DNA of 59,345 nt from a virus, in IMG/VR virus record IMGVR_UViG_3300009285_000007, positions 1 to 59,345 of that record; one strand, given 5' to 3'. The position numbers and the translations under genes are program-made. Under the pieces are notes generated by a model that was given only the letters and a program-made list of their open reading frames with translations, did not search any database and had not been told where the DNA came from. Shown here in pieces: positions 1 to 59,345 of this stretch (its first letter is position 1; each line of letters starts with the position of its first letter).

Positions 1-77
1 AGTCCACCCTCACCGTCGAGCCTGGAGTCTGGGTGGCCGTCGAGACGGGTGCGGATGTCGGCGAGCTCGGCGCGGAG
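1..77. repeat. Terminal direct repeat, left copy, identical to 59269..59345 (circular-assembly overlap)
   Basis: Read directly: agtccaccctcaccgtcgag...gagctcggcgcggag occurs at both ends. Confidence 0.95.
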
Positions 78-3627: not shown

Positions 3628-3703
3628 CTCATCCTCCGATTAGAGCACCCAACCCCGGCCGCCGAGAGGGGGAGACGACGACCGGGGAGGGTGCGACTTG
3701 GGT

Positions 3704-4885
3704 CTAGATTGCGTCCGCGTCCGGAGTCGCGAAGTAGGTATTGATGGCAGCCACGACGCCGCGAAACTCCGGGATCTCACCGTACCGACCGCAGAACGTG
3801 CTGAGCATCTGCCGCGCGTCGAGCAGCTCATCTCGCGCCCGCTGTTCCTCGCGGGCCTTCGCCTCGGCCGCTTCCCACTCGCGACGCTTGCGGTCTTCAT
3901 CGGCGCGGTGCACGGCCTCGATCTTCTCGCGCTCGGCACGGAGCCGCGCTTCCTCCGCCCCGCGTGCTGCACGAGCCTCGGAGTCTGCCTTCTCCCGGAG
4001 CCGGCGTGCTTCGGCGTCTGCTTTCTCTCGAGCCTCACGCGCGGTTTTCTCCTCTGCCGCGATACGGTCGCGCTCAGCCTTCATCCTAGCGCGAGCTTCG
4101 GCTTCCTGTGCTTCGCGTGCCTCCCTGGCCTTGCGCTCTTCTGCTGCGATGCGTTCCCTGGCCGCGTGCTCCTCGGCCTCGATCTTGGCGCGGGCCTCTG
4201 CCTCCGCCTTGCGCTGGGCGGCGGCCTCCGCTTCGCGCTTCTCGCCCTCGGCCTTCTCCCGTGCCTCCTGCTCGGCGCGCAGCCTGGCGAGCTCGGCCCG
4301 TTCCTCGGCGATGCGCGCCTGCTCGGCCTCGTGCGCGACCGCCGCCGCGTGTAACTCACGGAGGGTGTCGAGCGTTTCAGCCTTGGCGGCTGCAGCCGCT
4401 ACCGCAAACTCGTCGTTACGCGTGGGATCGAAGGCGCCGAGTTGCTCCATCGCATCGTAGATCGCGCCTGACGGTTTACCGACCATGCGGCGGGCCGGCT
4501 CACGGATGGCGTCGACCTCGGCACGAGCCTTCTCGATGCGCGCTTGCTCGGCGAGTGCGCGGGTCGCCTTCTCTTCTGCCCTGCGCGCCTCCTCTGTCCT
4601 GATCGCCTCGTCGACCGGCGTCTCGAGAGCGAGCAGCTCGACGGTGATGCGCTTCGCCTCCGTGTCGATTGCCTTGCACCGCTCGAGTGCTGGGGCCTTG
4701 ATGCGCTTGCGCTCCGACTCCAGGGACGTGCGCCACTTGCGGATCTCGGCGCGGGCCTTGCGTGCAGCGTCGAGGCAAGCGGTAGTATCCACCACCCAGA
4801 TGGTCGCGCCGTACTGCTCGCGGAGCTGCGCCAGCGCGGCCTCGGTGGGGCTGTATTCTGCGATTGCCGTGGTCGTGTCCGTCAT
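3704..4885 (-). CDS. Hypothetical protein with a roughly 200-aa Glu/Ala/Arg/Lys-rich coiled-coil centre (recombination-module neighbour)
   Basis: GGAGG RBS. Globular N and C ends flank the EAR-rich repeat. Sits directly upstream of the recombination genes. Confidence 0.8.
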   Translation of the reverse strand: MTDTTTAIAEYSPTEAALAQLREQYGATIWVVDTTACLDAARKARAEIRKWRTSLESERKRIKAPALERCKAIDTEAKRITVELLALETPVDEAIRTEEARRAEEKATRALAEQARIEKARAEVDAIREPARRMVGKPSGAIYDAMEQLGAFDPTRNDEFAVAAAAAKAETLDTLRELHAAAVAHEAEQARIAEERAELARLRAEQEAREKAEGEKREAEAAAQRKAEAEARAKIEAEEHAARERIAAEERKAREAREAQEAEARARMKAERDRIAAEEKTAREAREKADAEARRLREKADSEARAARGAEEARLRAEREKIEAVHRADEDRKRREWEAAEAKAREEQRARDELLDARQMLSTFCGRYGEIPEFRGVVAAINTYFATPDADAI

Positions 4886-14049: not shown

Positions 14050-15443
14050 CGTGGGCGAATGAGTCATACTGTAAGTGGCTTTCAAAGAAGATGGAGACGA
14101 GCACGCCAGTCGGGCTTTCTCCATCAGACATACACCTGGGCGAGTATCTGTTCGGCTTTCAAGCTGACCTCGTGAGGTGGGCGCTTGTCCGCGGTCGGGC
14201 CGCAATCTTTGCCGACACCGGGCTTGGCAAGAGTCTGATGCAGCTCGAGTGGGCTAGACACATCGCGGAGCACGGGCGAGTGCTAATACTCACACCGCTG
14301 GCAGTGGCGCAACAGACTGTACGCGAGGCGCAGAGGTTCGGCATTGACGCCACGTATTGCCGTGATGATGACGGGTCGCGGATCGTCGTGACGAACTACG
14401 ACATCCTCGACCGCTTCGATCCGTCGCGATTTGTCGGCATCGTGCTCGATGAGAGTAGTATACTAAAGAGCTTCAACGGTGCTACTCGTAACGCACTGAT
14501 CGGTCAATTCGGTGCGACACCATACCGCCTTGCGTGCACCGCAACGCCGGCACCGAACGACTTCACAGAGTTGGGGAACCATTCGGAGTTCCTGAGCATC
14601 AAATCGCGCACGGAGATGCTCGCAGAGTACTTCGTGCACGACGGCGAGACCACCCAAGAATGGCGACTCAAAGGCCACGCCGTGGATCAATTCTGGCGCT
14701 GGGCGTGCGGCTGGGGCGCCATCGTGCGCAAGCCGAGCGACCTCGGATACGATGACGGCAACTTCGCGCTCCCCCCGCTGCGCATGCATGAGCACGTGTT
14801 GAGGGTCGACCACACGGCCGCGTGGCAATCCGGGATGCTGTTCGCCACGGAGTCGATGACACTCTCGGACCAGCGCGCCACACGCCGGGCAACGATTGAT
14901 GACAGGGTATCGGCCGCATGTGAATTGGCTGCCGGCGATGAACCTGTCCTAATCTGGTGTGAGTTGAACGCCGAAGGTGACGCACTGGAAAAGTCGATAC
15001 CGGGTGCCGTGCAAGTCAAAGGCTCTGATTCGCCAGACGTGAAGGAGGATCGGCTGCTCGGCTTCGCGGATGGCAAGTATCGCGTTCTGGTCACGAAGCC
15101 AAGCATCGCGGGCCATGGTATGAATTGGCAACACTGCGCCAGACAGATATTCGTCGGCGCGTCACACTCCTACGAGCAAACCTACCAGGCTTTGCGCCGG
15201 AGCTGGCGATTCGGCCAGACGAGGCCGGTTGACGCGTTCATCATTCGCGCCGAGACGGACGGCGCAATCGTCGCGAACTACAAGCGCAAGGACCACGACG
15301 CTCAGTTGATGTCGGTAGAGGCGTCCAAACACGTGCTCGGCGCCGTGCGCGAGGCAATCGGCGCGACGCGGAGAGAGTGGAACGACTACAGCGCAGAAAC
15401 TTCAATGCGCATCCCGTCATGGTTGCGCGCGGAGGCGGCATGA
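14046..15443 (+). CDS. SNF2/DEAD-like superfamily-2 helicase
   Basis: ADTGLGKS (motif I), VLDESS (motif II), C-terminal helicase motifs (VTKPSIAGHGMNWQ, QALRRSWRFGQ). ATGA start. Confidence 0.9.
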   Translation: MTWANESYCKWLSKKMETSTPVGLSPSDIHLGEYLFGFQADLVRWALVRGRAAIFADTGLGKSLMQLEWARHIAEHGRVLILTPLAVAQQTVREAQRFGIDATYCRDDDGSRIVVTNYDILDRFDPSRFVGIVLDESSILKSFNGATRNALIGQFGATPYRLACTATPAPNDFTELGNHSEFLSIKSRTEMLAEYFVHDGETTQEWRLKGHAVDQFWRWACGWGAIVRKPSDLGYDDGNFALPPLRMHEHVLRVDHTAAWQSGMLFATESMTLSDQRATRRATIDDRVSAACELAAGDEPVLIWCELNAEGDALEKSIPGAVQVKGSDSPDVKEDRLLGFADGKYRVLVTKPSIAGHGMNWQHCARQIFVGASHSYEQTYQALRRSWRFGQTRPVDAFIIRAETDGAIVANYKRKDHDAQLMSVEASKHVLGAVREAIGATRREWNDYSAETSMRIPSWLRAEAA

Positions 15444-17380
15444 AGGTCATCAACCAAGCACACGGCGAGCGGTTCGCCATCTACAATGCGGACTGCGTCG
15501 AGGCACTGCGCGGGTTGCCGGATAGCTCCGTGCACTACTCCATCTTCTCCCCGCCGTTTGCGAGTCTGTACACCTATAGCGCTTCTCCGCGCGATATCGG
15601 CAACTCACGAGATTACGCGGAGTTCACAGAGCATATGGGCTTCATGACCGGTGAGTTGCTCCGTGTCACGAAGCCAGGCCGGTTGCTGTCATTTCACTGC
15701 ATGCTGCTGCCGACAAGCAAGACTCGCGACGGATACATCGGGCTGCGTGACTTCCGTGGCGACCTCATCAGAGCATTCAATCTTGGCGGGTGGGTGTTTC
15801 ATTCGGAAGTAGCGATCTGGAAGGATCCAGTCACGGCCATGCAACGGACGAAGGCGCTGGGCTTGCTCCACAAGCAGATCAAGAAAGACGCTGCGATGAG
15901 TCGCCAGGGGATCAACGACTATTTAGTGACGATGCGACGGCCTGGCGAGAATGACGAGCCAGTCGCACACAAGGATGATCCGCTCGGTAATGATGTCGAG
16001 GTGTGGCAGCGGTACGCATCGCCGGTGTGGGCCGTAGCAGGAGAGCCGGACGACGAGGGTATGTGTCGCATGACACAGGACATCAATCCCAACGAGACGT
16101 TGCAGTATCGCAGTGCTCGCGAGGACAAGGACGAGCGCCACATCTGCCTTGCCGAAGGGTCGCTTGTGCTCACGCGCGAGCGTGGCTACCAGCCCATCGA
16201 GATCGTTGAGCCGGGGGAACACGTCCTCACGCATCATGGCCGGTGGCGCCCGGTGTTGGCTCGGTGCTGTAACGGCACCAAGGGCACGATCCGTGTGCAG
16301 GCCCAAGGCGTTGCCAACCTGATCGCGACTCCAGACCACAAGCTCTACGCCAGGGTGGCAAGCGGGGCGCGCGCGAAGGAACTGGCACTGAAAGCCGACC
16401 CGACATGGATTCAAGCATCGAAGACCACTGGGTCATACCTCAACCTCAAGCTGCCTCCGGTGGAGGAGAGCGAGTTGTCGGCCGAGGAGTGGTGGATCGT
16501 CGGCCGCTGGCTCGGAGACGGCCACCGCGGAACTCGCCGCACCAGTGGCGCTCGCGGAGCAGGCTTTGGCGAATTCATCGTGTCGTGTTCGCATGAAGAG
16601 GCACCGGGGCTCATCGAGAGGCTGGGGTCACACGCCGGACAGGTCCACAAAATCACGGCGACGCAGATTACGCTCCGCGGGCTCCGCCACGTCGTGCGCG
16701 AGACTCTCGATAGGTGCGGCGAGGGCGCCGCAAACAAGCACCTGCCCGGCGAGGCGGCGGCACTTTGCCAAGAGAAGGCCGAGGCCCTGCTTTCGGGTTA
16801 CCTGTCGGCTGATGGCCATTACGTTTCGAGACACGACCGCCATTGCTCCTCGTCGATCTCACGCGCGCTACTGCTCGGCATGTCGCTCGTCGCGATGCGC
16901 GCACGTGATGTGGTTGCGAGCGTCTATGCGGGCCGTCCAGACAGGGGTGGTGTCATTTGCGGACGAAACGTTCACATGGCGCAGGACTGGATCTTCTCAT
17001 TCAGGGGCAGCAACGGTTATCGGAAGTCCGGGTGGATCGACGAACTGGGTTCGTGGCGGAAGGTGCGCAAGATTAATGATGCCGGAGAGCGGCGTGTCTG
17101 GGACCTGCAGGTAAAAGAAGACGAGTCATTCACTGCTGAGGGGTGCGTTGTTCACAACTGCCCGCTGCAACTCGAAGTCATCCGTCGCGCGGTCAGGCTG
17201 TGGACGAACCCCAACGACATCGTGCTCTCGCCATTCGCAGGTATCGGATCTGAGGGCGTAGTCTCCATCGAGGAGGGCCGACGGTTCGTCGGCGTCGAGC
17301 TCAAGCGGAGCTACTACGAGCAGGCCACGCGCAATCTCGCCGAAGCGGAGAACCCGCGGCAAGCAAGCCTGTTCGCGTAG
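15440..17380 (+). CDS. Beta-class N6A/N4C DNA methyltransferase interrupted by an intein (precursor 646 aa)
   Basis: IFSPPF (motif IV) at the N terminus and VLSPFAGIGSEG (motif I) at the C terminus. A 338-aa insertion between ...DERHI and CPLQLEV has intein hallmarks. Confidence 0.9.
   Translation: MKVINQAHGERFAIYNADCVEALRGLPDSSVHYSIFSPPFASLYTYSASPRDIGNSRDYAEFTEHMGFMTGELLRVTKPGRLLSFHCMLLPTSKTRDGYIGLRDFRGDLIRAFNLGGWVFHSEVAIWKDPVTAMQRTKALGLLHKQIKKDAAMSRQGINDYLVTMRRPGENDEPVAHKDDPLGNDVEVWQRYASPVWAVAGEPDDEGMCRMTQDINPNETLQYRSAREDKDERHICLAEGSLVLTRERGYQPIEIVEPGEHVLTHHGRWRPVLARCCNGTKGTIRVQAQGVANLIATPDHKLYARVASGARAKELALKADPTWIQASKTTGSYLNLKLPPVEESELSAEEWWIVGRWLGDGHRGTRRTSGARGAGFGEFIVSCSHEEAPGLIERLGSHAGQVHKITATQITLRGLRHVVRETLDRCGEGAANKHLPGEAAALCQEKAEALLSGYLSADGHYVSRHDRHCSSSISRALLLGMSLVAMRARDVVASVYAGRPDRGGVICGRNVHMAQDWIFSFRGSNGYRKSGWIDELGSWRKVRKINDAGERRVWDLQVKEDESFTAEGCVVHNCPLQLEVIRRAVRLWTNPNDIVLSPFAGIGSEGVVSIEEGRRFVGVELKRSYYEQATRNLAEAENPRQASLFA
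16145..17158 (+). mobile_element. Intein with LAGLIDADG homing-endonuclease domain (338 aa) inside the methyltransferase
   Basis: Starts CLAEGSLVLTRERGYQPIEIVEPGEHVLTHHG (blocks A/B). Two LAGLIDADG-like motifs (WWIVGRWLGDGH, LLSGYLSADGHY). Ends VWDLQVKEDESFTAEGCVVHN, followed by the +1 Cys (CPLQ). Confidence 0.85.
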
Positions 17381-18684: not shown

Positions 18685-18778
18685 CCTGCCCACGCTGCGG
18701 AACTGAGTTGCGAGCACGGCTGCTGATCCGCGGCGTGTGGCGGTGGGTGTGTCTGCGGTGTGCGGAGAGGAGCGAGTG

Positions 18779-18779
<1 letters not shown>
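18681..18779 (+). CDS. Tiny Zn-ribbon protein (32 aa)
   Basis: MTCPRCGTELRARLLIRGVWRWVCLRCAERSE. ATGA overlap upstream and TGATG downstream. Confidence 0.5.
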
Positions 18780-19807
<1,028 letters not shown>

Positions 19808-49472: not shown

Positions 49473-49605
49473 CGTCGTCTCCGTGGTGGTGTGCGTCGTC
49501 ATGGTGGTAATGTAGCACGTCTGACGAATAACGCAAGAAAAAAGATTGCACCCATGTCGCTTTTTTTACGTTGCTAAAATCGCAAGAAAGGCGTACAGTT
49601 ACAGC
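49473..49605. promoter_or_regulatory. AT-rich divergent intergenic region with CGCAAGAAA x2 (second switch-like region)
   Basis: The most AT-rich stretch I saw. CGCAAGAAA occurs at 49532-49540 and 49581-49589. TTGCTA-N17-TACAGT ends 6 nt before the ATG at 49606. Confidence 0.4.
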
Positions 49606-49935
49606 ATGGGACGCAAACCGACAGGGCGCAAGCGGGGGCAGCGAGGGCCGGACAGGGCGCCGCGCAAGCCGGGCTCGGGACGCCGGGCCGTGGTGCGGCC
49701 GAGCACGAGAGGGGCGGCGGCACTGGCAGACTGGCTCGCCGGTGACGGGCGGTCGAGGGCCGGGCTCGCCGGGCAGCTCGGGTGCAGCGCCTACCGCGTC
49801 CACCGGCTCCTGCACGGACAGGCGCCGGCCACGCTCCGAGAGGCGGTCGTTATAGAGGAGATCACGGACGGGGCGGTCGGGGCGCATGCTTGGCTGGAGG
49901 TGGCGACGCCTGAGCGTCGCACCACTCCCTCGTAG
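49606..49935 (+). CDS. Cro/YdaS-like HTH protein with Arg/Lys-rich N-terminal tail
   Basis: RAGLAGQLGCSAYRVHRLLHGQAPATLREAVVIEEITDGAV is a YdaS/Cro-like pattern. It is the only plus-strand gene in the minus block. Confidence 0.6.
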   Translation: MGRKPTGRKRGQRGPDRAPRKPGSGRRAVVRPSTRGAAALADWLAGDGRSRAGLAGQLGCSAYRVHRLLHGQAPATLREAVVIEEITDGAVGAHAWLEVATPERRTTPS

Positions 49936-50326
49936 CGCCATGCACGGTCTCGCAGCGGTGGCGCTGGCCGTCGATGACCACGCATAGCTCGACGATCTTG
50001 TGCGCGCATGCGAGCCGGCCAATCTCGGCAGCACTCCATGGCAGTACTGAGTATTCTGGGCCGCCGACAGCGGAGGCTGGAATCATACTATCATCTGCCA
50101 TCGTCGCGGTCTCCACGCACCGCCGTATCCGCCCGTCGTCCCTCGGGTCAGCGTCGTCGTAGCAGGTCCACCGCCCGTCCCGGTGCGAGCAGTCGCACAT
50201 GCGGCCGTCGACCGCGAACATCTGGCCGTACGCGTCGCGGTAGGTGCCGGTGTCGTGGTCGCCGTCAAACTCCGCCGCCTTGTTGCATCCCACCGCCAGC
50301 AGAATCAGAATTGCTATCAGTCGCAT
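49862..50326 (-). CDS. Lipoprotein (LAVGC lipobox), Cys-rich
   Basis: AGGAGG RBS. MRLIAILILLAVGCNKAAEF. The 3' end overlaps the convergent HTH gene by 74 nt. Confidence 0.7.
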   Translation of the reverse strand: MRLIAILILLAVGCNKAAEFDGDHDTGTYRDAYGQMFAVDGRMCDCSHRDGRWTCYDDADPRDDGRIRRCVETATMADDSMIPASAVGGPEYSVLPWSAAEIGRLACAHKIVELCVVIDGQRHRCETVHGATREWCDAQASPPPAKHAPRPPRP

Positions 50327-50346
50327 GGATCCTCCTGTATCGCACG

Positions 50347-51081
50347 CTACCATCTAGCGTCAAGCGCCACCCTCCGCACCACGTCTCCATAGTATTTCCT
50401 CTCCCACTCACGGCGTCCGAAGCCCGCTCCGGGTTCGCCACCGATGTGATCGACACGCAGGCGCTCGCGAGGGAGAGATCCGCCGTATGACATAGCATAT
50501 ACGGGGTGGATCGGAAGATCCTCGCGTGCGAGATAGGCGAACACATCGAGGATCGTCCAGTGCGCAAGCGGGGCGCAGGCAATGTTGCTCGTCTCTCCCC
50601 ACCGACGCACGCGCATGCGACGCGCGCTCGACTCATCGGCGCGGATCCCGCTCACGCGCGGGGTCTGCATGTATGATGTACCGATGGCCTCGCGCATGAG
50701 TCTGTCTGAGCACGCGCACGGCACGTCTGCCGGGCAGTCGCAGCCGCATTCAATCTCCATGTACTCGTACGGATAGCGGAGCAGGAACGCATCGCGGACG
50801 CGGACGTTGTCCGGGTTACTCAGTCGGCCGAATAGCGTATGCACCATCTTGCGACAGCCCGCGACCCAGGCAAGGTGGGCCATAACCACTGAGTCCTTAC
50901 CCCAACTCGCCATCACGACAGCGTCCGGATGCTGGGCGCGGAATGCAGCCAAAACGTCCAGAGCTCGTGAGATAAGCCGACCCATACGCGCGCTGTGTGC
51001 CAGAGCACGATCTTGACGCTCCAGCCTTGTCCACTCCGCGATGTCCGCGTGCGTGTGACGCCGACTCTGAATCAAGGGCAT
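50347..51081 (-). CDS. PAPS-reductase-family (CysH-like / PP-loop) protein
   Basis: SWGKDS PP-loop, VSGIRADESSARR motif, inserted Cys cluster IECGCDCPADVPCAC. Start MPLIQSRRHT. Confidence 0.8.
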   Translation of the reverse strand: MPLIQSRRHTHADIAEWTRLERQDRALAHSARMGRLISRALDVLAAFRAQHPDAVVMASWGKDSVVMAHLAWVAGCRKMVHTLFGRLSNPDNVRVRDAFLLRYPYEYMEIECGCDCPADVPCACSDRLMREAIGTSYMQTPRVSGIRADESSARRMRVRRWGETSNIACAPLAHWTILDVFAYLAREDLPIHPVYAMSYGGSLPRERLRVDHIGGEPGAGFGRREWERKYYGDVVRRVALDARW

Positions 51082-51344
51082 CGTGGCCACCACTTGTCGT
51101 GTCCCGCGAGCACCGTCATGAGCTGCGGTGCGCCGTTCCCATTCTCGGCCACACGGAACCGCAGCCGTCGTGGCCGGCCTTCGCGGTAAAGCCACACCCC
51201 AGGTTCGATCTCCTTTACCCTCCGCGCTCGCTCGCTGCAACGAACGAGTTCAGCCAGTGCTTGCTCGTAGTTCGCTAGTGGGTCGACGCGCTCGACGTAG
51301 CGTCGCACCGCATGTGGTGTGATGAACCAGCGGCCAGTGATCAT
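51072..51344 (-). CDS. Hypothetical protein (90 aa)
   Basis: ATG at 51344 gives an ATGA overlap with the stop of the sigma-like gene. MITGRWFITPHAVRRYVERV... Confidence 0.6.
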   Translation of the reverse strand: MITGRWFITPHAVRRYVERVDPLANYEQALAELVRCSERARRVKEIEPGVWLYREGRPRRLRFRVAENGNGAPQLMTVLAGHDKWWPRCP

Positions 51345-51859
51345 ACAGCTCTCCGTGGTATATTGCACGTCGGCTTGAGCGCACCCGGAGGTGAGTCAAT
51401 CCGGCCGAGCGCCCGCTGCAGTGATCGCGCAAAGTTGTTCCCGGCATCACATACACCGAAGATCCTGGCCGCATCACTCTTGTCGACAGAGTACACTACG
51501 TGCACGAGCGCTGCACGCTGATGCGGCGCCATCGCGGTCCATGCCACTCGTGCCCTCCACGCGCACAGCGCGGCCAACTCATGAGGTGCGTCAACGGCGG
51601 GCTCTCTCGCCATCCATGCGTGCAACTCCCGTGACCGCCTCCACCGGTTACTGACTCCACCGAAAATCCTACGCGCCGCAGACACCGCATAGCGCCTACC
51701 CCAGAACGCAGTCGGTGGAGCGCCGAACCTGGCATGCGCAACGACGAACGAGGCCATTACCTCCTGCGCCACGTCCGCCCGCCAGTGCCGCATGGCGCGA
51801 GGCACCACGCGACGGGCTTGCCTGCGTGCGATGCGGTAGGCGCAGGTGATGTCAATCAT
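51341..51859 (-). CDS. ECF-type sigma-70-like protein (regions 2 and 4)
   Basis: ADVAQEVMASFVVAHARF is region-2-like. MAPHQRAALVHVVYSVDKSDAARIFGVCDAGNNFARSLQRALGRI is a region-4 HTH-like segment. ATGA overlap with the csf3-like gene. Confidence 0.6.
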   Translation of the reverse strand: MIDITCAYRIARRQARRVVPRAMRHWRADVAQEVMASFVVAHARFGAPPTAFWGRRYAVSAARRIFGGVSNRWRRSRELHAWMAREPAVDAPHELAALCAWRARVAWTAMAPHQRAALVHVVYSVDKSDAARIFGVCDAGNNFARSLQRALGRIDSPPGALKPTCNIPRRAV

Positions 51860-52593
51860 GCGGCGAGTACCTCCCCGGTCACCGGATGGATGACCGGCTC
51901 CGACAGGTCAGGGTCGCGTGCATAGGTGTGCCGGCTCACGTGATGGTACGGAGGTCGGATGCTCGCGATGCTCTGTGCCTCCGACTCGCGGCAGGGCATG
52001 CGACGCTGCGACATGACCCATTCGGCGGACACGTCAGCCGGCTCGACCGCCCACCGCATGACGCGCCCCTGGCCCTTCGCGCAGTGCTTGCCGATTCCCA
52101 GGACGTGCGTCTGCAGGAGTCGCAGCAACTCGTCCTTGTCGCCGATGCAGAACCACCGCACCTCGTGCGCGAACGACGTGGGTAGTTTGAGGTCGTACGC
52201 CTTCGCTGGGCCGCACCCGGCGTTGACCGAGACCGCGTCCGTGTACCGCGTCATCTGCTCACCGGCGATGCGCTTGCGCACCTCGAACACGCTGCGCTTG
52301 CGCCACACAGCCAGCGCCCGCGTAGCCATCCAGCCCCACACACGACCGCTCTCGTCGCGCAATCTGTCGTCGACGCCGGGCGGTATGTCCGCCTCGACGG
52401 ACCACCGAGCGATTGGCAGCGGGAAGTCAACCGCCCACGCCGTGTTGATCGGCGGCAACTCCCACCGCTGCTCTTCGGTGAGGTCGCGGTATGCTGCCCA
52501 TGCCACGATGCCATCGAGGTGCATGCCGTCGTCGAAATGGACGACCGGTTCGCTGAGTCTGGCTGTGACGAGTAGTGACTCGTGTGCGCTCAT
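51856..52593 (-). CDS. csf3: Cas5-like RAMP (type IV Csf3-like)
   Basis: MSAHESLLVTARLSEPVVHFDDGMHLDGIVAWAAY and the Gly-rich loop LGIGKHCAKGQGRV. ATGA overlap with the csf2-like gene. Confidence 0.6.
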   Translation of the reverse strand: MSAHESLLVTARLSEPVVHFDDGMHLDGIVAWAAYRDLTEEQRWELPPINTAWAVDFPLPIARWSVEADIPPGVDDRLRDESGRVWGWMATRALAVWRKRSVFEVRKRIAGEQMTRYTDAVSVNAGCGPAKAYDLKLPTSFAHEVRWFCIGDKDELLRLLQTHVLGIGKHCAKGQGRVMRWAVEPADVSAEWVMSQRRMPCRESEAQSIASIRPPYHHVSRHTYARDPDLSEPVIHPVTGEVLAA

Positions 52594-53600
52594 CCCGCCG
52601 CCCCCTGTAGCGCCGCCAGGATCTCCTCCCGCCGCTCGCGCAGGTGCGCCACGTAAGCGCCATCCCAAGACGCACCAGCGGCCGGGACGAGGCTCTTGTC
52701 GGCCGCCATGGCGGGTGCGATGATGCCGCGGATCTGCCCCGACCACTGCATCGAGACACGTCCGAGGCCGATGCTGCGCTTCGCTCCGAGGTAGTAAATC
52801 AACCCGCCGTCACCGGCCTGGTCCTGTGCCGCATGCGAGAGCGAGGCCTTCAACGCGGCGAGTTCCATCAGGTCGAGGTCACGGTAGTAGAGCCCGCCCC
52901 AGAGCTTCGCCCCGGGCTTGATGATCTCGCTGTCGTAGATCATCTGGGATGTACCCTCCATCTTCGTACGTGCCTCGGCCTCGAGAGACTCGCTGACCTT
53001 GCCCTCGAGCTTCAGTCGCTCGGCGTTCGGCAGCAAACGCGCGACATGGGGTGAGCGACTGGCCTCGTGGCGCGTTCCGAACGTCTCGCCTCGGAAGATG
53101 CCGGAGCGACGGCGCGCATGCGGCAATTCCTGTGCGTCTATTGGTAGGCGCCAGGCGTTCTCCTCGCAGACGAGGTGGATGTTGTCGACGCTGAGCTTGC
53201 TGTGTGCCATGTAGTTGCCGGCGCTGTAGCCGCACACGCCGAGGATGGGGAACAGCTCCGCGAGCGCACGGGCCTTGCTGAGGTTGACCGCGCTGCCGCT
53301 CTTGCTCAAGTGGCCGCCGGAGAACAGAAGGTCAACTACCGGCTTGGTGAGCGAGCCATCCGCAACGCCCATCGCAGTAAGCGCGTGATCGACACCAGCC
53401 TCGCGGATGGTGTGCTTGAAACTGTTGCCACTAATGAATGGCACCTCCTCATCCTCGCCGTCTGGCGTCGTGATCTCCTGCACCCGCAAGAGCGCCGTGT
53501 TGCCCTCAGTGCCAGCCCCGTGATGGAGCGCGTCAAGCGCCGTGGCGATGAAGCTCAATCTGCCTGACTGCCTGGTGACCTGCTCTGCTGTTGCAACCAT
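52590..53600 (-). CDS. csf2: Cas7-like RAMP (type IV Csf2-like)
   Basis: VPFISGNSFKHTIREAG (Cas7-type motif) and the C-terminal Gly-rich LGAKRSIGLGRV. GAGGAGG RBS. 336 aa. Confidence 0.65.
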   Translation of the reverse strand: MVATAEQVTRQSGRLSFIATALDALHHGAGTEGNTALLRVQEITTPDGEDEEVPFISGNSFKHTIREAGVDHALTAMGVADGSLTKPVVDLLFSGGHLSKSGSAVNLSKARALAELFPILGVCGYSAGNYMAHSKLSVDNIHLVCEENAWRLPIDAQELPHARRRSGIFRGETFGTRHEASRSPHVARLLPNAERLKLEGKVSESLEAEARTKMEGTSQMIYDSEIIKPGAKLWGGLYYRDLDLMELAALKASLSHAAQDQAGDGGLIYYLGAKRSIGLGRVSMQWSGQIRGIIAPAMAADKSLVPAAGASWDGAYVAHLRERREEILAALQGAAG

Positions 53601-53601
53601 A

Positions 53602-53997
53602 CTATGCCTCCTCTTGGTGGGTGAGTTCGTCGAGTTCCTTGCGGAGCACCTTCTTGGACTTCCTCTGCTCGTCTCGCTTCGCCTGTGCCATCGCCACGAT
53701 GTAGACCGCATCGCGCCTGCAGAGGTGACGGAAGCGCTTGAACGTCGCCCGCTCGACCAGCGCCTCACTGAGCGAAGAGAGATAGTTGGCTGTGTCGTTG
53801 GTGACCGCCGGGATCTGGAGCTTGCGCGCCATCTCGCTCGTGAACCGGCCCACCGTCTCGGCCCGGTTCGCCGCGCTTACCATTGCCGCCCGCGCCCTCG
53901 GCCACCAGTCCAGCGCCCGGATCGTGTCCTGCGGTACCGACCGCATCATTGCCAATATCAGATCGACCGCCAGGTCCGTCAGTTGCTCGTCCGTCAT
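53602..53997 (-). CDS. cas11: Cas11-like small helical subunit
   Basis: 131 aa, helix-former rich, basic C terminus. Sits between the csf1-like and csf2-like genes. Strong GC3 in this frame. Confidence 0.5.
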   Translation of the reverse strand: MTDEQLTDLAVDLILAMMRSVPQDTIRALDWWPRARAAMVSAANRAETVGRFTSEMARKLQIPAVTNDTANYLSSLSEALVERATFKRFRHLCRRDAVYIVAMAQAKRDEQRKSKKVLRKELDELTHQEEA

Positions 53998-54706
53998 CTC
54001 GCATATCCTTTCGGAGGAAGCTCACCACGAGCTCCAGTTGCTTGCTGTTATGGTACGGCTGCAGCACCGGCGCGTACTCACGCCACGTGGCGATGCCCCA
54101 CTTGTGTAGCGTCGAGGGTAGGGGGCAGCCGGTGAAGATGTCGTTGCGCGAGTAGCCAGCGATGTAGAGCGATCGTGCTGCGCCCCACAGCGCGCGGAAT
54201 TCTGCGGCGCGCATCCGCACGTCGTTCCGCTCGTATCGGATCTGCCACTGCTGTCCGGCCGGCAGGTTGATCGGCGCGAACGGCAGCGTGTGAATCTGGC
54301 CGCTGTCCGCGATAGCCATTGCCCACTGGCATGACGGAGGGCTGAGCAGAACGGAAAGCAAGTGGGCGACATCGGCCTTGTTCGTCGCGTAGACACACGG
54401 CCCACCGATGGGTCCGCGACTCGGCGGGCACTGGCCGTCAGAGCGCCAAAGCACGGACCATGATCGCAGCGTGTTTGGCGGCTTGCCGCGCATCGTCCAG
54501 ACGCAGGCGCGGCAGATGTGAGACGATGCCGGCACAGCGAGGTCGCGGAAGTCGGAGAAGCTGCTGCCGAATGCCAGCGATGAGAGTATGCCAACGTTGC
54601 CGCAGGGTGCACCGCAGAGCGTGCACAGGTCGTCGGTGGATTCAATCGGCCGCTGACAGTCTGGCTCGCCGCAGTCGTGCCAGATGTGTTGCGTCACGCT
54701 GGGCAT
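53765..54706 (-). CDS. csf1: Csf1/Cas8-like large subunit with N-terminal Zn-finger clusters
   Basis: AGGAGG RBS. HDCGEPDC...CTLCGAPC...CRAC. The last ~77 codons overlap the cas11-like gene out of frame and look non-coding. Confidence 0.55.
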   Translation of the reverse strand: MPSVTQHIWHDCGEPDCQRPIESTDDLCTLCGAPCGNVGILSSLAFGSSFSDFRDLAVPASSHICRACVWTMRGKPPNTLRSWSVLWRSDGQCPPSRGPIGGPCVYATNKADVAHLLSVLLSPPSCQWAMAIADSGQIHTLPFAPINLPAGQQWQIRYERNDVRMRAAEFRALWGAARSLYIAGYSRNDIFTGCPLPSTLHKWGIATWREYAPVLQPYHNSKQLELVVSFLRKDMRDDGRATDGPGGRSDIGNDAVGTAGHDPGAGLVAEGAGGNGKRGEPGRDGGPVHERDGAQAPDPGGHQRHSQLSLFAQ

Positions 54707-54897
54707 GCGTCCTCCTGCAGATCCATCCATCCCCCTGCCCCCAGCACTATCCTCCGCAACTCCGCGCACCCTACCCCAGGCCGTCCGTGGCAGCAGCAGC
54801 CGTGAGTGTGCCCTGCGGCCCAGCGGGTGCGGAGCACGGCGAGGGCTACTGTGACTGCCGGCGGCTGGTCCTGGGTCTTGCGGGTGCGGCGGGTCAT
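54694..54897 (-). CDS. Possible small Cys-rich ORF (67 aa)
   Basis: ATGA overlap with the upstream stop. MTRRTRKTQDQPPAVTVALAVLRTRWAAGHTHGCCCHG... Overlaps the csf1-like start by 13 nt. Confidence 0.35.
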   Translation of the reverse strand: MTRRTRKTQDQPPAVTVALAVLRTRWAAGHTHGCCCHGRPGVGCAELRRIVLGAGGWMDLQEDACPA

Positions 54898-55205
54898 GGG
54901 CCACCTCCCAGCGTGAGCTGCCTCGCTCTCATCCTCGCCGCGCGCTTGACCACGTCGACAGCCTCGCCGCCGGCCACGCTCGCCACGGCCGACCGCACCG
55001 CACCGTCGACGAGCTCGCGCACCCACTCCTCCTCAGCCAGTCGCTCGACAGCGCGCCGCACTTGGGAGCGGACTGCGGCGGCCATGGCGCCGTCGCTGTG
55101 GCCGCTACCCACGTGCAGCTCCGCGTCGAGGGCGCGGCGGGCGGCGTCCTCGATTGCGCCCACGGGGAGGCGGACTGTGATTTCGAGCCACTCAGAGTTA
55201 GTCAT
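54894..55205 (-). CDS. Hypothetical protein (103 aa)
   Basis: ATG at 55205 overlaps the radical-SAM gene's stop by 8 nt. MTNSEWLEITVRLPVGAIEDAARR... Confidence 0.65.
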   Translation of the reverse strand: MTNSEWLEITVRLPVGAIEDAARRALDAELHVGSGHSDGAMAAAVRSQVRRAVERLAEEEWVRELVDGAVRSAVASVAGGEAVDVVKRAARMRARQLTLGGGP

Positions 55206-55920
55206 GTGGCGCCTCCAATACCTTCCGCAGGTCGGCCTTGAGCACGTAGCGCCGGCCCGTCGCCTCGCAGAGGTCCACCGCATCGCGAGCGAACCGCGGC
55301 CAGTCGATCTCGCGAGCCCGAGCGTCGTGGTTCCAGCGGCCGATCTTGAACACGTCGACGTAGCCCTTGGCGCGCCGGATGAGTTCGAGCGTCTGCTCTG
55401 GGTCGATCACAGGCTCGAGGCTCGCCCAGGTCTCGATGCCGCGCGCGTGCGCTTCGGCGAGCGCGATCAGACGCTCGTGTGGTAAGGCCGCGTGCGGTTC
55501 CCACTTCCGGGAGTCGCTCGCCATTGCGAACGTCAGTGTAGCGCCGTACCGGTCGATCCCAGGCCGCAGCATGTCGAGGTCGCGCATGCTGCGCTCGCCG
55601 CTTTTGGTGAGGATGACCACGCGGCACCTGGCGCGCTGGATGATGTCGATGGCCTCGCGCGTGGTGCCGTCGCTGCCCGGCCCGTAGGGGTCGGTGGTGA
55701 AGCACAGCAGGACCTCGCGGCCGGCGTGGCGTGGCGCCTCCTTGACTAGCGACTCGAGCACGCCCGGGCGCGGCCCCTGCTCGTCGAACGCATCGCGGTG
55801 CATGTGCAGCGCGCGCGGGGCGTAGCAGTACAGGCACCCGTGGCCGCAGCCGCGGTAGAGGTTGACGGCGCGCTCGCAGTATTCGAGCGCCTTGCCCTTG
55901 GGCTCGTAGATGGACTGCAT
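55198..55920 (-). CDS. Radical SAM protein (SplB/COG1533-like)
   Basis: NLYRGCGHGCLYCYA contains the CxxxCxxC cluster at the N terminus. TIM-barrel-like length. Confidence 0.8.
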   Translation of the reverse strand: MQSIYEPKGKALEYCERAVNLYRGCGHGCLYCYAPRALHMHRDAFDEQGPRPGVLESLVKEAPRHAGREVLLCFTTDPYGPGSDGTTREAIDIIQRARCRVVILTKSGERSMRDLDMLRPGIDRYGATLTFAMASDSRKWEPHAALPHERLIALAEAHARGIETWASLEPVIDPEQTLELIRRAKGYVDVFKIGRWNHDARAREIDWPRFARDAVDLCEATGRRYVLKADLRKVLEAPHD

Positions 55921-56183
55921 CACCGCCTCCCCGGGGTGAGGGGGTCGGACTTCGGTGGCGACCGGCGCAGCTTCGCGATGCGGCACTGCGGCCACCACTG
56001 CTCACTATTGCTGTTCCAGCTAACCACAGCCCCGCGTAACGGACCGAGGATGGAGTCGTGATCCTCGAGCCGGATGATTCTGACGGTCCAGCATCCGAGC
56101 CGCGACATCCGCGTGTTGCCCATCTTCGTGCGGTGCACGTCGTAGAGCACGTCACCGGGCTTGATCTTGTCGAACGAAATCAT
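55920..56183 (-). CDS. Hypothetical protein (87 aa)
   Basis: GGAGGGAGATGAG RBS, identical to that of the 56490 gene. TGATG overlap with the radical-SAM gene start. Confidence 0.65.
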   Translation of the reverse strand: MISFDKIKPGDVLYDVHRTKMGNTRMSRLGCWTVRIIRLEDHDSILGPLRGAVVSWNSNSEQWWPQCRIAKLRRSPPKSDPLTPGRR

Positions 56184-56184
56184 C

Positions 56185-56490
56185 TCATCTCCCTCCATTC
56201 GCGCGCACCATCTTGTCCCCACGCACGCACCATCGGATGTCGCCCTCGAGCGTCGCCACGTCCGAGTAACGATCCGTGTCCGGGCCCTCGGCGGACTCAT
56301 GCGTGTACGCTGCCGAGCCGGTGACCATGCGCTCCACGCGCCAACAGCCATCGCCATCGTAGCGCACGCGCAGCACGGTTCCGTCGCTGAGGGCGAGTAT
56401 GGACGCATCGTCATCGCCCGGGTTGAATTCCTCGCTGATGTCGCCCTCGACCTCGATCAAATCGTCGCTTGCTCCGTAGATCTTGATCAT
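56185..56490 (-). CDS. Hypothetical protein (MIKIYGASDDLIEVEG family)
   Basis: GGAGGGAG RBS. Protein-like composition. Confidence 0.75.
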   Translation of the reverse strand: MIKIYGASDDLIEVEGDISEEFNPGDDDASILALSDGTVLRVRYDGDGCWRVERMVTGSAAYTHESAEGPDTDRYSDVATLEGDIRWCVRGDKMVRANGGR

Positions 56491-56491
56491 C

Positions 56492-56746
56492 TCATCTCCC
56501 TCCGTCCTGGGTCGGTGCGTAGCCCTCGCACGCTCTGCTATTGGCGTGCGTCGGCGTTGGGTTGTGGCCGAGCTGTCCGCGCTGCTGTCCGCACGCCTGC
56601 GCGTGGTCCCAGATCCCGCCCGGGTCGTAGCAGGTGAAGCCGCACTCGCAGCGGTACGACCGGCGCCAGCCGACTAGGTGCTCCACGTCGAGGAATCGGG
56701 TCAGGTGCAGCGTCTCGGTGCTGACGAAGGTACGGCGGTCGATCAC
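56492..56746 (-). CDS. Hypothetical Cys/His protein (84 aa)
   Basis: GTGA overlap start after AGGAGAG. RCECGFTCYD...HAQAC. Confidence 0.6.
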   Translation of the reverse strand: MIDRRTFVSTETLHLTRFLDVEHLVGWRRSYRCECGFTCYDPGGIWDHAQACGQQRGQLGHNPTPTHANSRACEGYAPTQDGGR

Positions 56747-57155: not shown

Positions 57156-57499
57156 GGGGCGGCGGCCTTTGGTGCGTGGTCCACGATCTCGGCCACGGCA
57201 CGGAGCGTCTCGAGCGAGGCCTTGTCCATGCCCTCGCGTGTCCACGCGCGCACGCGGGCCAGGCATCTCTTGCGCTCTAGCTCGTGCTCGTGCTCCAGCG
57301 TAGCGACCTCGATCCAAGATCGACTCCAGCCAGATTGACGCGGGTATGTGCTGCCGTAGTGCGTCCACTTCGATCCGTCGCTCAGCTCGATGAAGCGCTT
57401 TGTGACGCGCTCAATCTTGCGTATCGCGCTCAGGCCGCTGTCCCAGCCGCCACTGTAGACGGCGACGGACATGCCTGGCGTCAGTTCGGTCGTGATCAT
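57152..57499 (-). CDS. Hypothetical protein (115 aa)
   Basis: AAGGAAG RBS. The ATG gives an ATGA overlap with the integrase stop. Confidence 0.7.
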   Translation of the reverse strand: MITTELTPGMSVAVYSGGWDSGLSAIRKIERVTKRFIELSDGSKWTHYGSTYPRQSGWSRSWIEVATLEHEHELERKRCLARVRAWTREGMDKASLETLRAVAEIVDHAPKAAAP

Positions 57500-58809
57500 T
57501 TGGCTTCCTTTTGGGTGGAAGAGGCGGCGAAATCCACGTCGAGCAAGATACTCGGCGGCGAGTAGCGGCTCCGTCGCCGGAACGGAATCACCTGTGCCGA
57601 GTGCATGTGCCGACCACATGGTGCGTCGGCCTGCACTTCGGCGTGATCGGCAGCGCACGCTTGACATGCGGGACAGCTACTTGCATCACCCTGGATGTGG
57701 TCCGCTCGCCTTACAAGCCGGGGGTCCTCGGTTCGATCCCGAGTCCGCCCACGCACTTGCGGCACCTGTGCCGAGTCACCTGTGCCGAGTAGGAGCCGCT
57801 CCGCTGCGGCGGCAGTCGCGGCGGCGCGCGCTTCGGTGCTGTGCTGGTAGAGACTTGTCGTCCGTAGATCTCGATGCCCGAGGCTCTCGAGCGCCGCCCA
57901 TGGGTCGCCGCTGCCGGCGACTGCGAGCGTCGCGAACGTGTGCCGCAGGTCTCGCAGCTTGATCCTCTTGCCGTAGCCGATCCTCTCGGCCGCCTCGCGG
58001 TATGCTCGCCTGTGCGTGCCCTGCGCCAGAACATGCTCGGCCTCGGGGTCGGCCTCGACGCGGCGACGGATGATCTCAGCCGCAGCGTCGGTGAGCCCGA
58101 TCACGCGCTCGCGCCGCGTTTTGGCGTCACCCGCCGGCACCCGGAGCACGTAGCGCGTGGCGCTCCCGGCCGGGGCGGGCTCGACCCATGAGGCGCGCAC
58201 GCGCTTGAGCTCGGCGGCGCGGAGCCCGGTACGGAGGCAGAGCTCGACCTCGTCGCGGGCGTCCTGGTGGAGCTCGGCGAGCCATACGGCGAGTACCTCT
58301 GGTGGATGCAGTTGGCCGCGGGCCGACTCGAGCGGGGCGTCGCTGCGGATCTTCGGTCGCGCCGGCACACGACCGATGTGGCCGCGCTGGCGAGCCAACC
58401 CGAGCGCGCGGACTAGCGCCTGCGCCTCGCGGCGGATCGTCTGACCACGCACGCCAGCCTCGCGGCGCGCGGCCACGTAGCGCGTGATCGCCACCTCGTC
58501 GATCTGCTGGACGGGCTTGTCGCCGAAGTGATCGGCAAGCGGCGCCCAGACCCACTCGAGCGTCTGTGCTCGCGACTCGGCTACGCCTTCGGCCACGGCA
58601 CGCTCGACATCCCACTCTGCAAGCCTTGCCACGTCTATGGCTCCCCGCCGGCAGCGCGGTGCGGCCGCTTCTGCGTCAGCCCGTTTGCGGCGCTCCTCTG
58701 TCGTAGCCTGTCGCCGATCTGTCGTGCGAGCGGAACCGCGGTGCTCCTTGCCTGCGACGGTAAAGCGGTACCACCAGCGGCGTGATCCGGGGCGTCGATA
58801 CAACGACAT
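57496..58809 (-). CDS. int: Tyrosine integrase
   Basis: MSLYRRPGSRRWWYRFTVAGKEHRGS arm-binding N terminus. RDLRHTFAT...LGHRDLRTTSLYQH catalytic region. The ORF continues about 115 aa past the catalytic Tyr, through the attP core. AGGAGG RBS. Confidence 0.9.
   Translation of the reverse strand: MSLYRRPGSRRWWYRFTVAGKEHRGSARTTDRRQATTEERRKRADAEAAAPRCRRGAIDVARLAEWDVERAVAEGVAESRAQTLEWVWAPLADHFGDKPVQQIDEVAITRYVAARREAGVRGQTIRREAQALVRALGLARQRGHIGRVPARPKIRSDAPLESARGQLHPPEVLAVWLAELHQDARDEVELCLRTGLRAAELKRVRASWVEPAPAGSATRYVLRVPAGDAKTRRERVIGLTDAAAEIIRRRVEADPEAEHVLAQGTHRRAYREAAERIGYGKRIKLRDLRHTFATLAVAGSGDPWAALESLGHRDLRTTSLYQHSTEARAAATAAAAERLLLGTGDSAQVPQVRGRTRDRTEDPRLVRRADHIQGDASSCPACQACAADHAEVQADAPCGRHMHSAQVIPFRRRSRYSPPSILLDVDFAASSTQKEAK
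57589..57602 (+). repeat. 14-bp motif CACCTGTGCCGAGT, copy 1 (candidate integrase arm-type site)
   Basis: Identical to two tandem copies at 57763..57790 on the other side of the attP core. Confidence 0.5.
57705..57751 (+). other. attP core: 3' portion of a tRNA-Val(UAC) gene (anticodon loop to discriminator), not a complete tRNA
   Basis: CTTACAA anticodon loop, GGGTC variable loop, CTCGG-TTCGATC-CCGAG T-arm, TCCGCCC acceptor strand plus A. Closely parallels the E. coli tRNA-Val(UAC) 3' half from memory. No matching 5' acceptor strand or D-arm upstream. Confidence 0.7.
57763..57790 (+). repeat. 14-bp motif CACCTGTGCCGAGT, tandem copies 2 and 3
   Basis: Read directly. Starts 12 nt after the tRNA fragment end. 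Confidence 0.5.
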
Positions 58810-58988
58810 GCGGTGTCCTCCTGAGTGTCGATCCAGGCGTCGACATCGGCCGTTCGATAGCGTACCCGGCCGGCGATCCGCAACCTCCGCGGTCCATCGT
58901 CGGCTCGGTGCGCGAGCCAGGAGACCGAGCACCCGATCCGCTCGGCGGCCTGTGCGACAGTGAGCAAGTCATCGCGCACGGCTTGCAC
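58635..58988 (-). CDS. Excisionase/AlpA-type HTH protein (Xis-like)
   Basis: LLTVAQAAERIGCSVSWLAHRADDGPRRLRIAGRVRYRTADVDAWI is an HTH_17-like motif. GTG start. The C-terminal ~58 codons overlap int out of frame. Confidence 0.6.
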   Translation of the reverse strand: MQAVRDDLLTVAQAAERIGCSVSWLAHRADDGPRRLRIAGRVRYRTADVDAWIDTQEDTACRCIDAPDHAAGGTALPSQARSTAVPLARQIGDRLRQRSAANGLTQKRPHRAAGGEP

Positions 58989-59202: not shown

Positions 59203-59345
59203 TACTTGCTCACCAGCCTCTCCACCACATCCCCAAGCCTTCGTAACTCCCGCATCGTCGCCGCAGCAAGTCCACCCTCACCGTCGAGCCTGGAGTCTGG
59301 GTGGCCGTCGAGACGGGTGCGGATGTCGGCGAGCTCGGCGCGGAG
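59202..59345 (-). CDS. 3' part of the junction-spanning CDS (see 1..470)
   Basis: In phase with 78..470 through the 77-nt overlap. Ends ...LRRLGDVVERLVSK-TAA. Confidence 0.6.
   Translation of the reverse strand, partial: LRAELADIRTRLDGHPDSRLDGEGGLAAATMRELRRLGDVVERLVSK
59269..59345. repeat. Terminal direct repeat, right copy, identical to 1..77
   Basis: Read directly. Confidence 0.95.

Follow-up and report, generated by a model that had tools for sequence, protein, structure and literature searches.

What might a CRISPR-Cas system of type IV-B do for a phage that carries it? Reviews and the 2025 classification list no demonstrated function for this subtype (PMC8175902, PMC11127173, PMC12669027). 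The question is raised here by a seven-gene operon on the minus strand, positions 54706-50347, of IMG/VR virus record IMGVR_UViG_3300009285_000007, a stretch of 59,345 nucleotides (nt) that was analyzed at its full length and is called the window below. A preliminary description of the window had recognized the operon as type IV-B. The most informative feature of the locus is one absent from that description: csf1, the gene for the large subunit, is overprinted on cas11, the gene for the small subunit, and the predicted product ends in a peptide of the type that binds the β sliding clamp. We propose that the operon would encode a Csf filament that is tethered to the clamp and acts at replication forks together with a CysH-like enzyme and the product of a small gene, orf98. 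We put the probability of this explanation as a whole at roughly 0.55.

A type IV-B effector operon without an array

Seven co-oriented open reading frames (ORFs) follow each other on the minus strand in the order csf1, cas11, csf2, csf3, orf172, orf98 and a cysH-like gene. The first, csf1 (53765..54706), encodes the 313-amino-acid (aa) type IV large subunit, which is Cas8-like (PADLOC Csf1_0_IV, 2.3e-28; TIGR03114, 3.1e-10). Between it and csf2 lies cas11 (53602..53997), for the 131-aa small subunit (PADLOC typeIV_Cas11, 1.3e-14), which was aligned with 25 homologues. The 336-aa Cas7 backbone subunit is encoded by csf2 (52590..53600; PADLOC typeIV_Cas7, 6.6e-64; PF01905, 1.9e-5) and the 245-aa type IV Cas5 by csf3 (51856..52593; PADLOC Csf3_0_IV, 5.6e-29; TIGR03116, 3.4e-21). 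Two further ORFs of the same operon, the Arg/Ala-rich orf172 (51341..51859) and orf98 (51072..51344; a small α/β protein of 90 aa from the ATG at 51344 and a recurrent neighbor of cysH), precede the cysH-like gene (50347..51081), which starts 775 nt downstream of the csf3 stop and encodes a 244-aa PP-loop ATP pyrophosphatase of the CasCysH type (PF01507, 2.5e-12; phrog_2302, 3.6e-17). The gene positions, the peptide motifs and the Csf1, Cas11, Csf2, Csf3 and PAPS-reductase identities given in the preliminary description were all borne out by the translations and by profile searches (PADLOC, NCBIfam, Pfam PF01507). Both NCBIfam matches, TIGR03114 for Csf1 and TIGR03116 for Csf3, fall under their equivalog cutoffs, which points to a divergent clade.

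For Csf2, the product of the gene on which the classification of type IV is now based, the assignment was also made by fold. It matches the Csf2 of the solved complex 7JHY in a phmmer comparison (3.7e-12), and an AlphaFold2 (AF2) model built from 30 homologues (predicted local distance difference test, pLDDT, 81) has as its best PDB matches in Foldseek the Csf2 chains of type IV-A (4.5e-14) and of 7JHY (1.2e-9), along with type III Csm3.

The genes are packed closely. A single nucleotide separates the cas11 stop from the csf2 ATG, an ATGA overlap joins csf2 to csf3, csf3 to orf172 and orf172 to orf98, and orf98 overlaps cysH by 10 nt. The tight translational coupling claimed earlier, as read from the sequence, holds from cas11 to cysH (a 1-nt gap or overlaps of 4-10 nt) and is less simple at the front of the operon, where csf1 overlaps cas11 by 233 nt and cas11 has its own AGGA Shine-Dalgarno-like element inside csf1.

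PADLOC was run on the seven operon proteins and on 10 other ORFs that include most of the largest, with small ORFs elsewhere partly scanned; among these there was no match to Cas6/Csf5, DinG, RecD, Cas10-HD or adaptation (Cas1) proteins. Repeat and tandem-repeat scans of the whole window found no CRISPR-like array, a mini-array scan of 49500-56500 was likewise negative, and no Rfam family was found in the window. Subtype IV-B is defined by csf1-cas11-csf2-csf3 plus a cysH-like gene, with no cas6, dinG, adaptation genes or array (PMC7038947, PMC8175902). Because gene content, gene order and profiles, and for Csf2 also the fold, match this published definition, the operon is, as had been claimed, a genuine CRISPR-Cas effector operon of type IV-B, without an array. 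By homology to 7JHY only, its Csf2 and Cas11 would be expected to assemble into a filament on RNA.

csf1 runs over cas11 in a different frame

Csf1 begins with an N-terminal Cys-rich domain (about aa 1-236), with C28, C31, C65 and C68 invariant among homologues, and continues in a 78-aa tail. The Csf1 profile match spans aa 2-234, and its end falls two codons short of the cas11 ATG. Beyond that ATG the csf1 frame goes on without a stop for 233 nt, in a frame different from that of cas11; this dual-coding overlap (53765..53997, minus strand) was read directly from the sequence. Over the 5' part of cas11 the tail reads as a Gly/Asp/Arg/Ala/Pro-rich linker that ends in ...HSQLSLFAQ* (C-terminal 20-mer, ...PGGHQRHSQLSLFAQ). 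The residues G, P, D, E, R, K, S, A and Q make up 76% of the tail vs 57% of the domain, which is disorder-like as judged by composition alone.

The overlap recurs, in one constant relative frame, in 20 of 26 distinct related loci, where it measures 215-290 nt (mostly 227-254). Each of the 20 tail loci has a csf1 frame that contains no stop for 210-285 nt beyond the cas11 ATG. In the third frame of these loci the median open stretch is 15 nt and none reaches 215 nt; therefore, the overlap is not due to high GC content. On this comparative evidence, the predicted Csf1 tail is real and is kept under selection. The locus is a clean case of overprinting, in which a nearly unconstrained linker and a five-residue motif are laid over a conserved gene.

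Overlaps of this kind have consequences for annotation. Public gene calls omit csf1 in three related loci, L002 (8889-9908), L003 and L004 (8894-9835), where it overlaps cas11 by ~230-300 nt and its omission leaves an apparent gap of 660-710 nt. Since gene callers skip the overlapping csf1, surveys based on called proteins will under-count csf1 in this clade and may misclassify such loci as csf1-less. A word-index search with Csf1 returned 3 proteins only, probably as a result of its prefilter and of skipped csf1 calls, and an exhaustive profile search was used instead (see below).

The tail ends in a predicted clamp-binding motif

The consensus for binding to the β sliding clamp is QL[S/D]LF, or more generally QxxLF (PMC12309361). 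Clamp motifs typically lie on flexible C-terminal peptides and are used by proteins of mobile elements, among them Tn7 and insertion sequence (IS) transposases (PMC3971601). Csf1 of the window carries QLSLF, a fit to QL[SD]LF, at aa 307-311, two residues before the stop (53774..53788, minus strand). A match to Qxx[LM][FL] occurs within the last 45 aa in 18 of the 20 tail loci, with variants such as QLSLF, QLDLF, QGDLF, QRSLF, QISLF and QLGLF; the remaining two tails have QLQLDGL and QLRLDGL instead. Against a six-frame background the chance of the motif is ~0.01 per locus (binomial P ~1e-34), and composition-matched shuffled tails contain it in at most 2 loci.

We considered whether the motif is a by-product of Cas11 conservation in the overlapping frame. 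Some conserved strings in the tail do shadow Cas11: AQAPD mirrors RKLQI, and RLV mirrors WW. The motif, however, occurs in two registers relative to the Cas11 alignment, after KLQI in one group of loci and before KLQI in another. In tail-less loci, Cas11 has no residues that mirror the motif, and the motif is absent from that frame. These two registers and this absence rule out the by-product explanation. The motif is also found in loci of 54-60% GC, and in L012, a distant locus of 46% GC, Csf1 ends in ...KQGQLSLF* upstream of cas11 with zero overlap.

The exhaustive profile search with the Csf1 domain recovered representatives of 1059 clusters (50% identity or less), 179 with E ≤1e-30, and the best 150 of the 1059 were taken for a census of the motif. 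A length of 295 aa or more is reached by 86 of these 150; the pentapeptide occurs in 57 of the 86, compared with only 6 of the 64 shorter ones. It lies 10 residues or fewer from the C-terminus in 53 of the 57, with Q at the first position in 57/57, L at the fourth in 56/57 and F at the fifth in 55/57; L prevails at position 2 and S, G or D at position 3, and the residue after the pentapeptide is G or D. Nine further long representatives have hexapeptide-like (QLxLxL-like) variants such as QLLLGL, QLSLDL and QLGLPG. Hexapeptides are reportedly a second recognized class of clamp motif (Dalrymple 2001, Wijffels 2004). Such a class is also supported by 10.64898/2026.05.27.728225.

By sequence, Csf1 shows the marks of a clamp ligand: a pentapeptide match, a disorder-like C-terminal tail and conservation of the motif among orthologues with divergent flanks. 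We consider it probable that the predicted tail binds the DnaN clamp of the host. A search of the tail-less loci found no clamp motif on another protein. No paper linking Csf1 or IV-B to the clamp was found in the literature library searched; the overprinted Csf1 tail with its clamp-type motif, its recurrence across loci and the role of orf98 as a conserved partner (see below) appear to be unreported.

Two side observations concern similar C-termini. The window encodes an intein-containing N6/N4 DNA methyltransferase (15377-17380, plus strand) that ends in ...NPRQASLFA*, with the motif at 17360-17374, so that this phage has a second C-terminal QxxLF; a homologue of the enzyme on the L048 contig ends in ...TGTLFS. 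This motif suggests a clamp-tethered, co-replicational methylation. On a plasmid of Actinarchaeum halophilum (L054), the Cas11-like protein (3550-3945) of an archaeal IV-B locus ends in ...DPDPEPTTSKLTDFITED*, a PIP-box-like xxxLxxFI after an acidic, Pro-rich linker. In this single case the predicted C-terminus might correspond, for archaeal PCNA, to the clamp motif of bacteria.

The CysH-like enzyme and its recurrent neighbor

A cysH gene is present in most related loci that are long enough, usually directly downstream of csf3. Among 22 aligned homologues of the CysH-like protein, the PP-loop reads SWGKDS in 21 and SGGKDS in one, and the motifs G[IV]RA[ED]ES and C[AR]P are conserved; none of the 22 has the C-terminal cysteine motif ECG[LI]H. 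Presence of the PP-loop and absence of the C-terminal catalytic cysteine distinguish CasCysH, which is described as an ATP α-hydrolase or adenylating enzyme and not a sulfonucleotide reductase (PMC8175902). The predicted protein of the window has this combination and fits the description of CasCysH. A cluster of cysteines in this protein (CGCDC...CAC) was considered as a conserved feature and rejected, as it falls in a variable region.

The preliminary description had treated orf172 and orf98 as two extra genes in the operon. This stands for orf172, which was found in this window alone: it has no Pfam, NCBIfam, PADLOC or PHROG match and no tblastn match in any related locus, and its resemblance to a sigma-70 region-4-like helix-turn-helix was an impression that no tool supported. 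It does not stand for orf98, which is a recurrent partner of cysH and not an insertion. orf98 has 51 homologues with invariant G4, F7, T9, P10, H11, R19, Y26 and R54, and occurs in seven distinct related loci (L006/18, L007/19, L010/48, L017 and L042-44). Its position in related loci varies between before csf1, between csf3 and cysH, and after cysH; in three further contigs, L051-L053, it abuts cysH or overlaps it by 4-7 nt, similar to the 10 nt seen in the window.

No Pfam family was found for orf98. Its AF2 model (pLDDT 82) has a helix-helix-four-strand (HH-EEEE) topology that matches uncharacterized phage proteins in BFVD at E 4e-4 and a DUF4258 protein at E 0.1. We treat orf98 as a conserved partner of CasCysH, for which the model makes an RNA-binding or RNase fold possible, and it should count as a seventh component of the system. 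The protein P0214 has a Csf1 domain, and its C-terminal part is similar to the last two thirds of orf98 (...KLRFRV...PQLLTVL...RRCS); either a natural fusion of Csf1 with orf98 or the merging of two genes in the gene call may account for it.

A proposed mechanism and the points against it

Component identities, operon structure, dual coding and motif conservation are the observed basis of the mechanism that we propose. Csf2 and Cas11 would form a double filament on RNA of ~55-60 nt, with Csf3 and Csf1 at one end (by homology to 7JHY and to type IV-A). The disorder-like Csf1 tail, ending in QLSLF, would fit into the hydrophobic cleft of DnaN, the host's β clamp, and concentrate the ribonucleoprotein (RNP) where clamps load, that is, at replication forks and in lagging-strand clamp zones. 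Among the scanned ORFs of the window there was no phage polymerase or clamp, which we count as dependence on host replication. At forks, single-stranded template and nascent strands would be exposed and could be reached without a helicase; this would explain why IV-B needs no helicase (DinG/RecD) and no nuclease. Nucleic acid bound to or paired with the tethered filament would then be offered to orf98 and the CysH-like adenylating enzyme, and these two would adenylate, modify or process it co-replicationally. The phage could gain by marking or protecting its own DNA (anti-restriction) or by obstructing the clamp-dependent replication of the host or of competing elements, two benefits that cannot be separated. 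That the methyltransferase of this phage also has a clamp-type motif hints that co-replicational modification of DNA may be a general strategy.

If the proposal is true, replisome coupling would be the missing mechanistic logic of the only CRISPR-Cas subtype without a known function, with the conserved motif on Csf1 pointing to DnaN as the host partner and to the replication fork as the place of action. The overprinted, motif-bearing Csf1 and the orf98-cysH pair set this phage-borne clade apart as a variant of IV-B. That IV-B at large, or a large phage-borne clade of it, is a replisome-coupled RNP with helicase-free access to single-stranded DNA, in which CysH and a RelE/DUF4258-like orf98 modify nucleic acid co-replicationally, is a possible but doubtful generalization. 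Taken as a claim of its own, action at the forks combined with CysH/orf98 chemistry on nucleic acid is tentative and, in our estimate, if anything slightly less likely than that.

Several points weigh against the proposal. About a quarter of the related loci (L006/7, L017 and L042-44) are tail-less, the Csf1-like protein of the cultured Skermania phage SPI1 has no tail, and on the plasmid of Mycobacterium sp. JS623 csf1 stops before cas11, with no ~80-aa tail and no QxxLF, its product ending in ...DDQSLL*. The tail-less loci and JS623 mean that clamp tethering is a feature of a clade and not essential to every IV-B. In L017 (36-1109), a 66%-identical relative, a single in-frame stop falls exactly at the junction of the csf1 domain and tail. 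Of the 86 long representatives in the census, 20 have no recognizable motif. QxxLF is a short motif, some QxxLF peptides bind the clamp weakly (PMC12309361), and both translation of the predicted tail and its binding to DnaN are proposals from the sequence. For orf98, the PDB fold matches are insignificant (E at least 0.13), most of them to RelE/HigB/YoeB/BrnT-type toxins, and action of CysH and orf98 on nucleic acid is a proposal held with low confidence. Assignment of the host goes back to two contigs of one Kofleriaceae metagenome-assembled genome (MAG), a weak pointer.

The csf1 frame of the tail-less relatives offers two side observations. In L017 it runs on past the stop for 91 codons, ending in ...VPLDLPA*; the tail could be decaying there, or readthrough of the stop codon could yield two isoforms. 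In L042-L044, a tail-less subclade, it is open for 321-375 nt after the csf1 stop, across all of cas11, and contains no clamp motif; this open frame may be the remnant of a former tail.

Alternative explanations

One alternative is an RNA sponge, or anti-CRISPR: the Csf filament would soak up CRISPR RNAs or other small RNAs non-specifically and let the phage escape RNA-guided defense of the host, and the tail and its motif would play no part. Both PMC7038947 and PMC7937560 bring up this idea, the JS623 IV-B complex binds a heterogeneous set of non-CRISPR RNAs that are uniform in length (PMC7937560), and an anti-defense function would be useful to a phage carrier. Such a sponge leaves unexplained, however, both the strictly conserved cysH partner (PMC7038947) and a clamp-type motif that persists in 18 of the 20 loci and 57 of the 86 representatives despite the cost of dual coding. 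The original authors themselves judged so complex an anti-CRISPR to be unlikely (PMC7038947), and we hold this explanation to be improbable.

We give about the same low odds to a tail that is translated and carries a motif for some other partner, such as a phage replication or recombination protein, a single-stranded DNA-binding protein (SSB) or another Csf subunit, or that acts as a degron or localization signal. Short linear motifs are promiscuous, DnaN binding is read off the peptide itself, and the motif varies (QGDLF, QRSLF, QRGLF), with Gly at position 3 weakening clamp binding in E. coli (PMC12309361). The residue profile is nevertheless that of the clamp consensus: Q1, L2, S/D3, L4 and F5, followed by G or D. 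The hexapeptide variants QLLLGL, QLSLDL and QLGLPG reportedly belong to the second class of clamp motif. The position of the motif at the extreme C-terminus, after a disordered linker, is also that of known clamp ligands (PMC3971601).

A further alternative is replication priming to the phage's own benefit: the RNP would form R-loops on phage DNA from phage transcripts, and the Csf1-bound clamp would recruit Pol III to start or restart replication. The scheme is purely inferential and leaves CysH and orf98 without a role; no origin-like element turned up beside the operon, and tail-less systems exist. It accommodates the clamp motif, the place of the cassette among replication and recombination genes in relatives, the near-confinement of IV-B to plasmids and phages (PMC7038947) and the origin of the RNAs bound by the JS623 complex, which come mostly from the expressing plasmid itself (PMC7937560). 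We rate it below both of the preceding explanations.

Finally, the notion that the long csf1 ORF is a high-GC accident or an assembly frameshift, with the real Csf1 ending near the cas11 start and the motif arising by chance, could appeal to the 62-70% GC of the window, to the dropping of csf1 by gene callers in L002 and L003 and to the tail-less relatives, but it is effectively refuted by the frame counts (in none of the 20 loci does the third frame stay open as far as 215 nt), the enrichment of the motif (P ~1e-34), its two registers, its presence at 54-60% GC and in the 46%-GC locus without overlap, and its presence in 57 independent representatives (clusters at 50% identity or less).

Relatives and host

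The preliminary description had stressed the phage context of the operon. A IV-B operon on a fully assembled phage stands; the context is less new than was supposed, since IV-B had already been reported on actinobacterial prophages (PMC7038947) and, together with cysH, in a virus of archaea (PMC10848311), and since a homologue of csf2, unannotated, and a cysH-like gene are present in the cultured Skermania phage SPI1. At E ≤1e-5, a large protein collection contains 171 relatives of Csf2, many on contigs of 51-62 kilobases (kb), and Csf2 homologues of this clade lie on many viral or metagenomic contigs of 43-86 kb. Alignment-based scans recovered 8 loci in IMG/VR and 33 in metagenomes; a single-protein scan of viral contigs gave zero matches where the alignment-based scan succeeded, and a comparison of the operon DNA with GenBank phages also gave zero. 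The cassette of relatives has genes for RecT/YqaJ, ERF, DnaB and Dam around it. Among 185,579 species-representative genomes the only matches are the two contigs of the Kofleriaceae MAG, which weakly point to a myxobacterial host. The host is probably a high-GC bacterium and possibly a member of the Myxococcota.

Two relatives have or may have an additional gene next to the cassette. In L005 a Pfam-annotated Cas6 (PF09559; 12506-13219) adjoins csf3, and in L012 a 206-aa ORF just upstream of csf1 (4033-4653) is merely suspected of being Cas6-like; csf1 and csf3 are duplicated in L012. No repeat array was found in the examined DNA of either locus.

The carrier phage

The window begins and ends with a 77-nt terminal direct repeat (1..77, the same as 59269-59345, at 100% identity; repeat family D4), which indicates a circular, complete assembly. 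A library scan identified packaging and head genes (large terminase, portal, head-morphogenesis protein, major head protein) as well as genes for a tape measure protein, an exonuclease VIII-like nuclease, a helicase and an amidase endolysin. Integration genes encode a tyrosine integrase, an HTH_17 excisionase-like protein and a Gp3-like recombination directionality factor. Packaging, head and tail, and integration modules are thus united on one complete replicon, as expected of a temperate tailed phage (Caudoviricetes), and the carrier is a complete temperate siphovirus-like phage.

The integrase gene (57496..58932, minus strand; PF00589, 5.1e-12) is given as the longest ORF; translation probably begins inside it, at MSLYRRPG. 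The 3' tail of this ORF contains a tRNA 3'-half-like fragment (…GGTTCGATCCCGAG…CCA…; 57705..57753, plus strand, boundaries approximate), which is probably the attP core; ARAGORN found no complete tRNA in the window. The terminal repeat, the structural and integration genes and this fragment agree with the earlier account of a complete temperate phage with attP nearby. Directly 3' of the tRNA-like core, at 57763-57790, an exact 14-nt tandem duplication (CACCTGTGCCGAGT x2) may be an arm-type or core-flanking site of the integrase.

On the circular map the operon is part of a single long leftward block that runs from 10267 to 1 and onward from 59345 to 47728. This block also carries xis, int and recombination genes, with the operon in the int-proximal arm on the same strand. 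The sole helicase in the window is a phage SNF2/DpdE-like protein 36 kb from the operon. Just upstream of csf1 lie a radical SAM protein gene (55198-55998, minus strand; PF04055, 7.3e-8; phrog_13321) and a 129-aa ORF, orf129 (54894-55283, minus strand). Both were considered as IV-B components and left out of the system because neither was found at another IV-B locus; both are probably cargo with no relation to it. Elsewhere, an (AGCGAC)n hexanucleotide tandem repeat of ~18 copies (19247-19354, within the ORF 18737-19807) encodes a low-complexity Ser/Asp/Arg-type stretch and is not CRISPR-like.

Comparison with known systems

The IV-B system on the plasmid of Mycobacterium sp. JS623 (7JHY; PMC7937560) shares with the window the four effector genes, a PAPS-reductase-family gene and the lack of an array. 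It differs in its megaplasmid carrier, in having cysH in a divergent operon and in the shorter csf1 described above, and its Csf2 is ~36% identical to that of the window over ~37% of the protein. This is the sole solved IV-B complex, and Csf1 and Csf3 are not resolved in it (PMC7937560).

Virus-borne IV-B modules with a CysH-like gene are also found in Fuxivirus of Bathyarchaeia (PMC10848311) and in actinobacterial prophages (PMC7038947). Fuxivirus is archaeal and has a two-repeat mini-array, whereas the window is a bacterial temperate phage without an array. In the passages searched, these two reports describe no Csf1 tail, clamp motif or orf98.

Type IV-A, in which Csf proteins work with CasDinG (7XG0, 8RC3), shares a homologous Csf1/Csf2/Csf3 core, is nuclease-free and borne on mobile elements, and supplies the best structural matches for Csf2 of the window. 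It has a CRISPR array, Cas6/Csf5 and DinG, none of which was found in the window, and does not have Cas11 or CysH.

The likeness of the proposed tail is to Tn7 TnsE and IS transposases, in which a QLSLF-type motif on a flexible C-terminal peptide connects a mobile element to the host replisome (PMC3971601, PMC4549789). A further shared trait is that the position of the motif, or the subunit that carries it, can vary among related elements. For those transposases and target selectors binding has been demonstrated, whereas here the motif is on a CRISPR large subunit and is known from sequence alone.

In type I-B, I-C and I-D systems, Cas11 is reportedly translated from within cas8 as an in-frame internal product (McBride et al. 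2020). The coding of a large and a small subunit on the same DNA is common to those systems and to the window. There, the small subunit is an in-frame part of the large one; in the window, the small subunit has a gene of its own, cas11, which the csf1 tail traverses in another frame.

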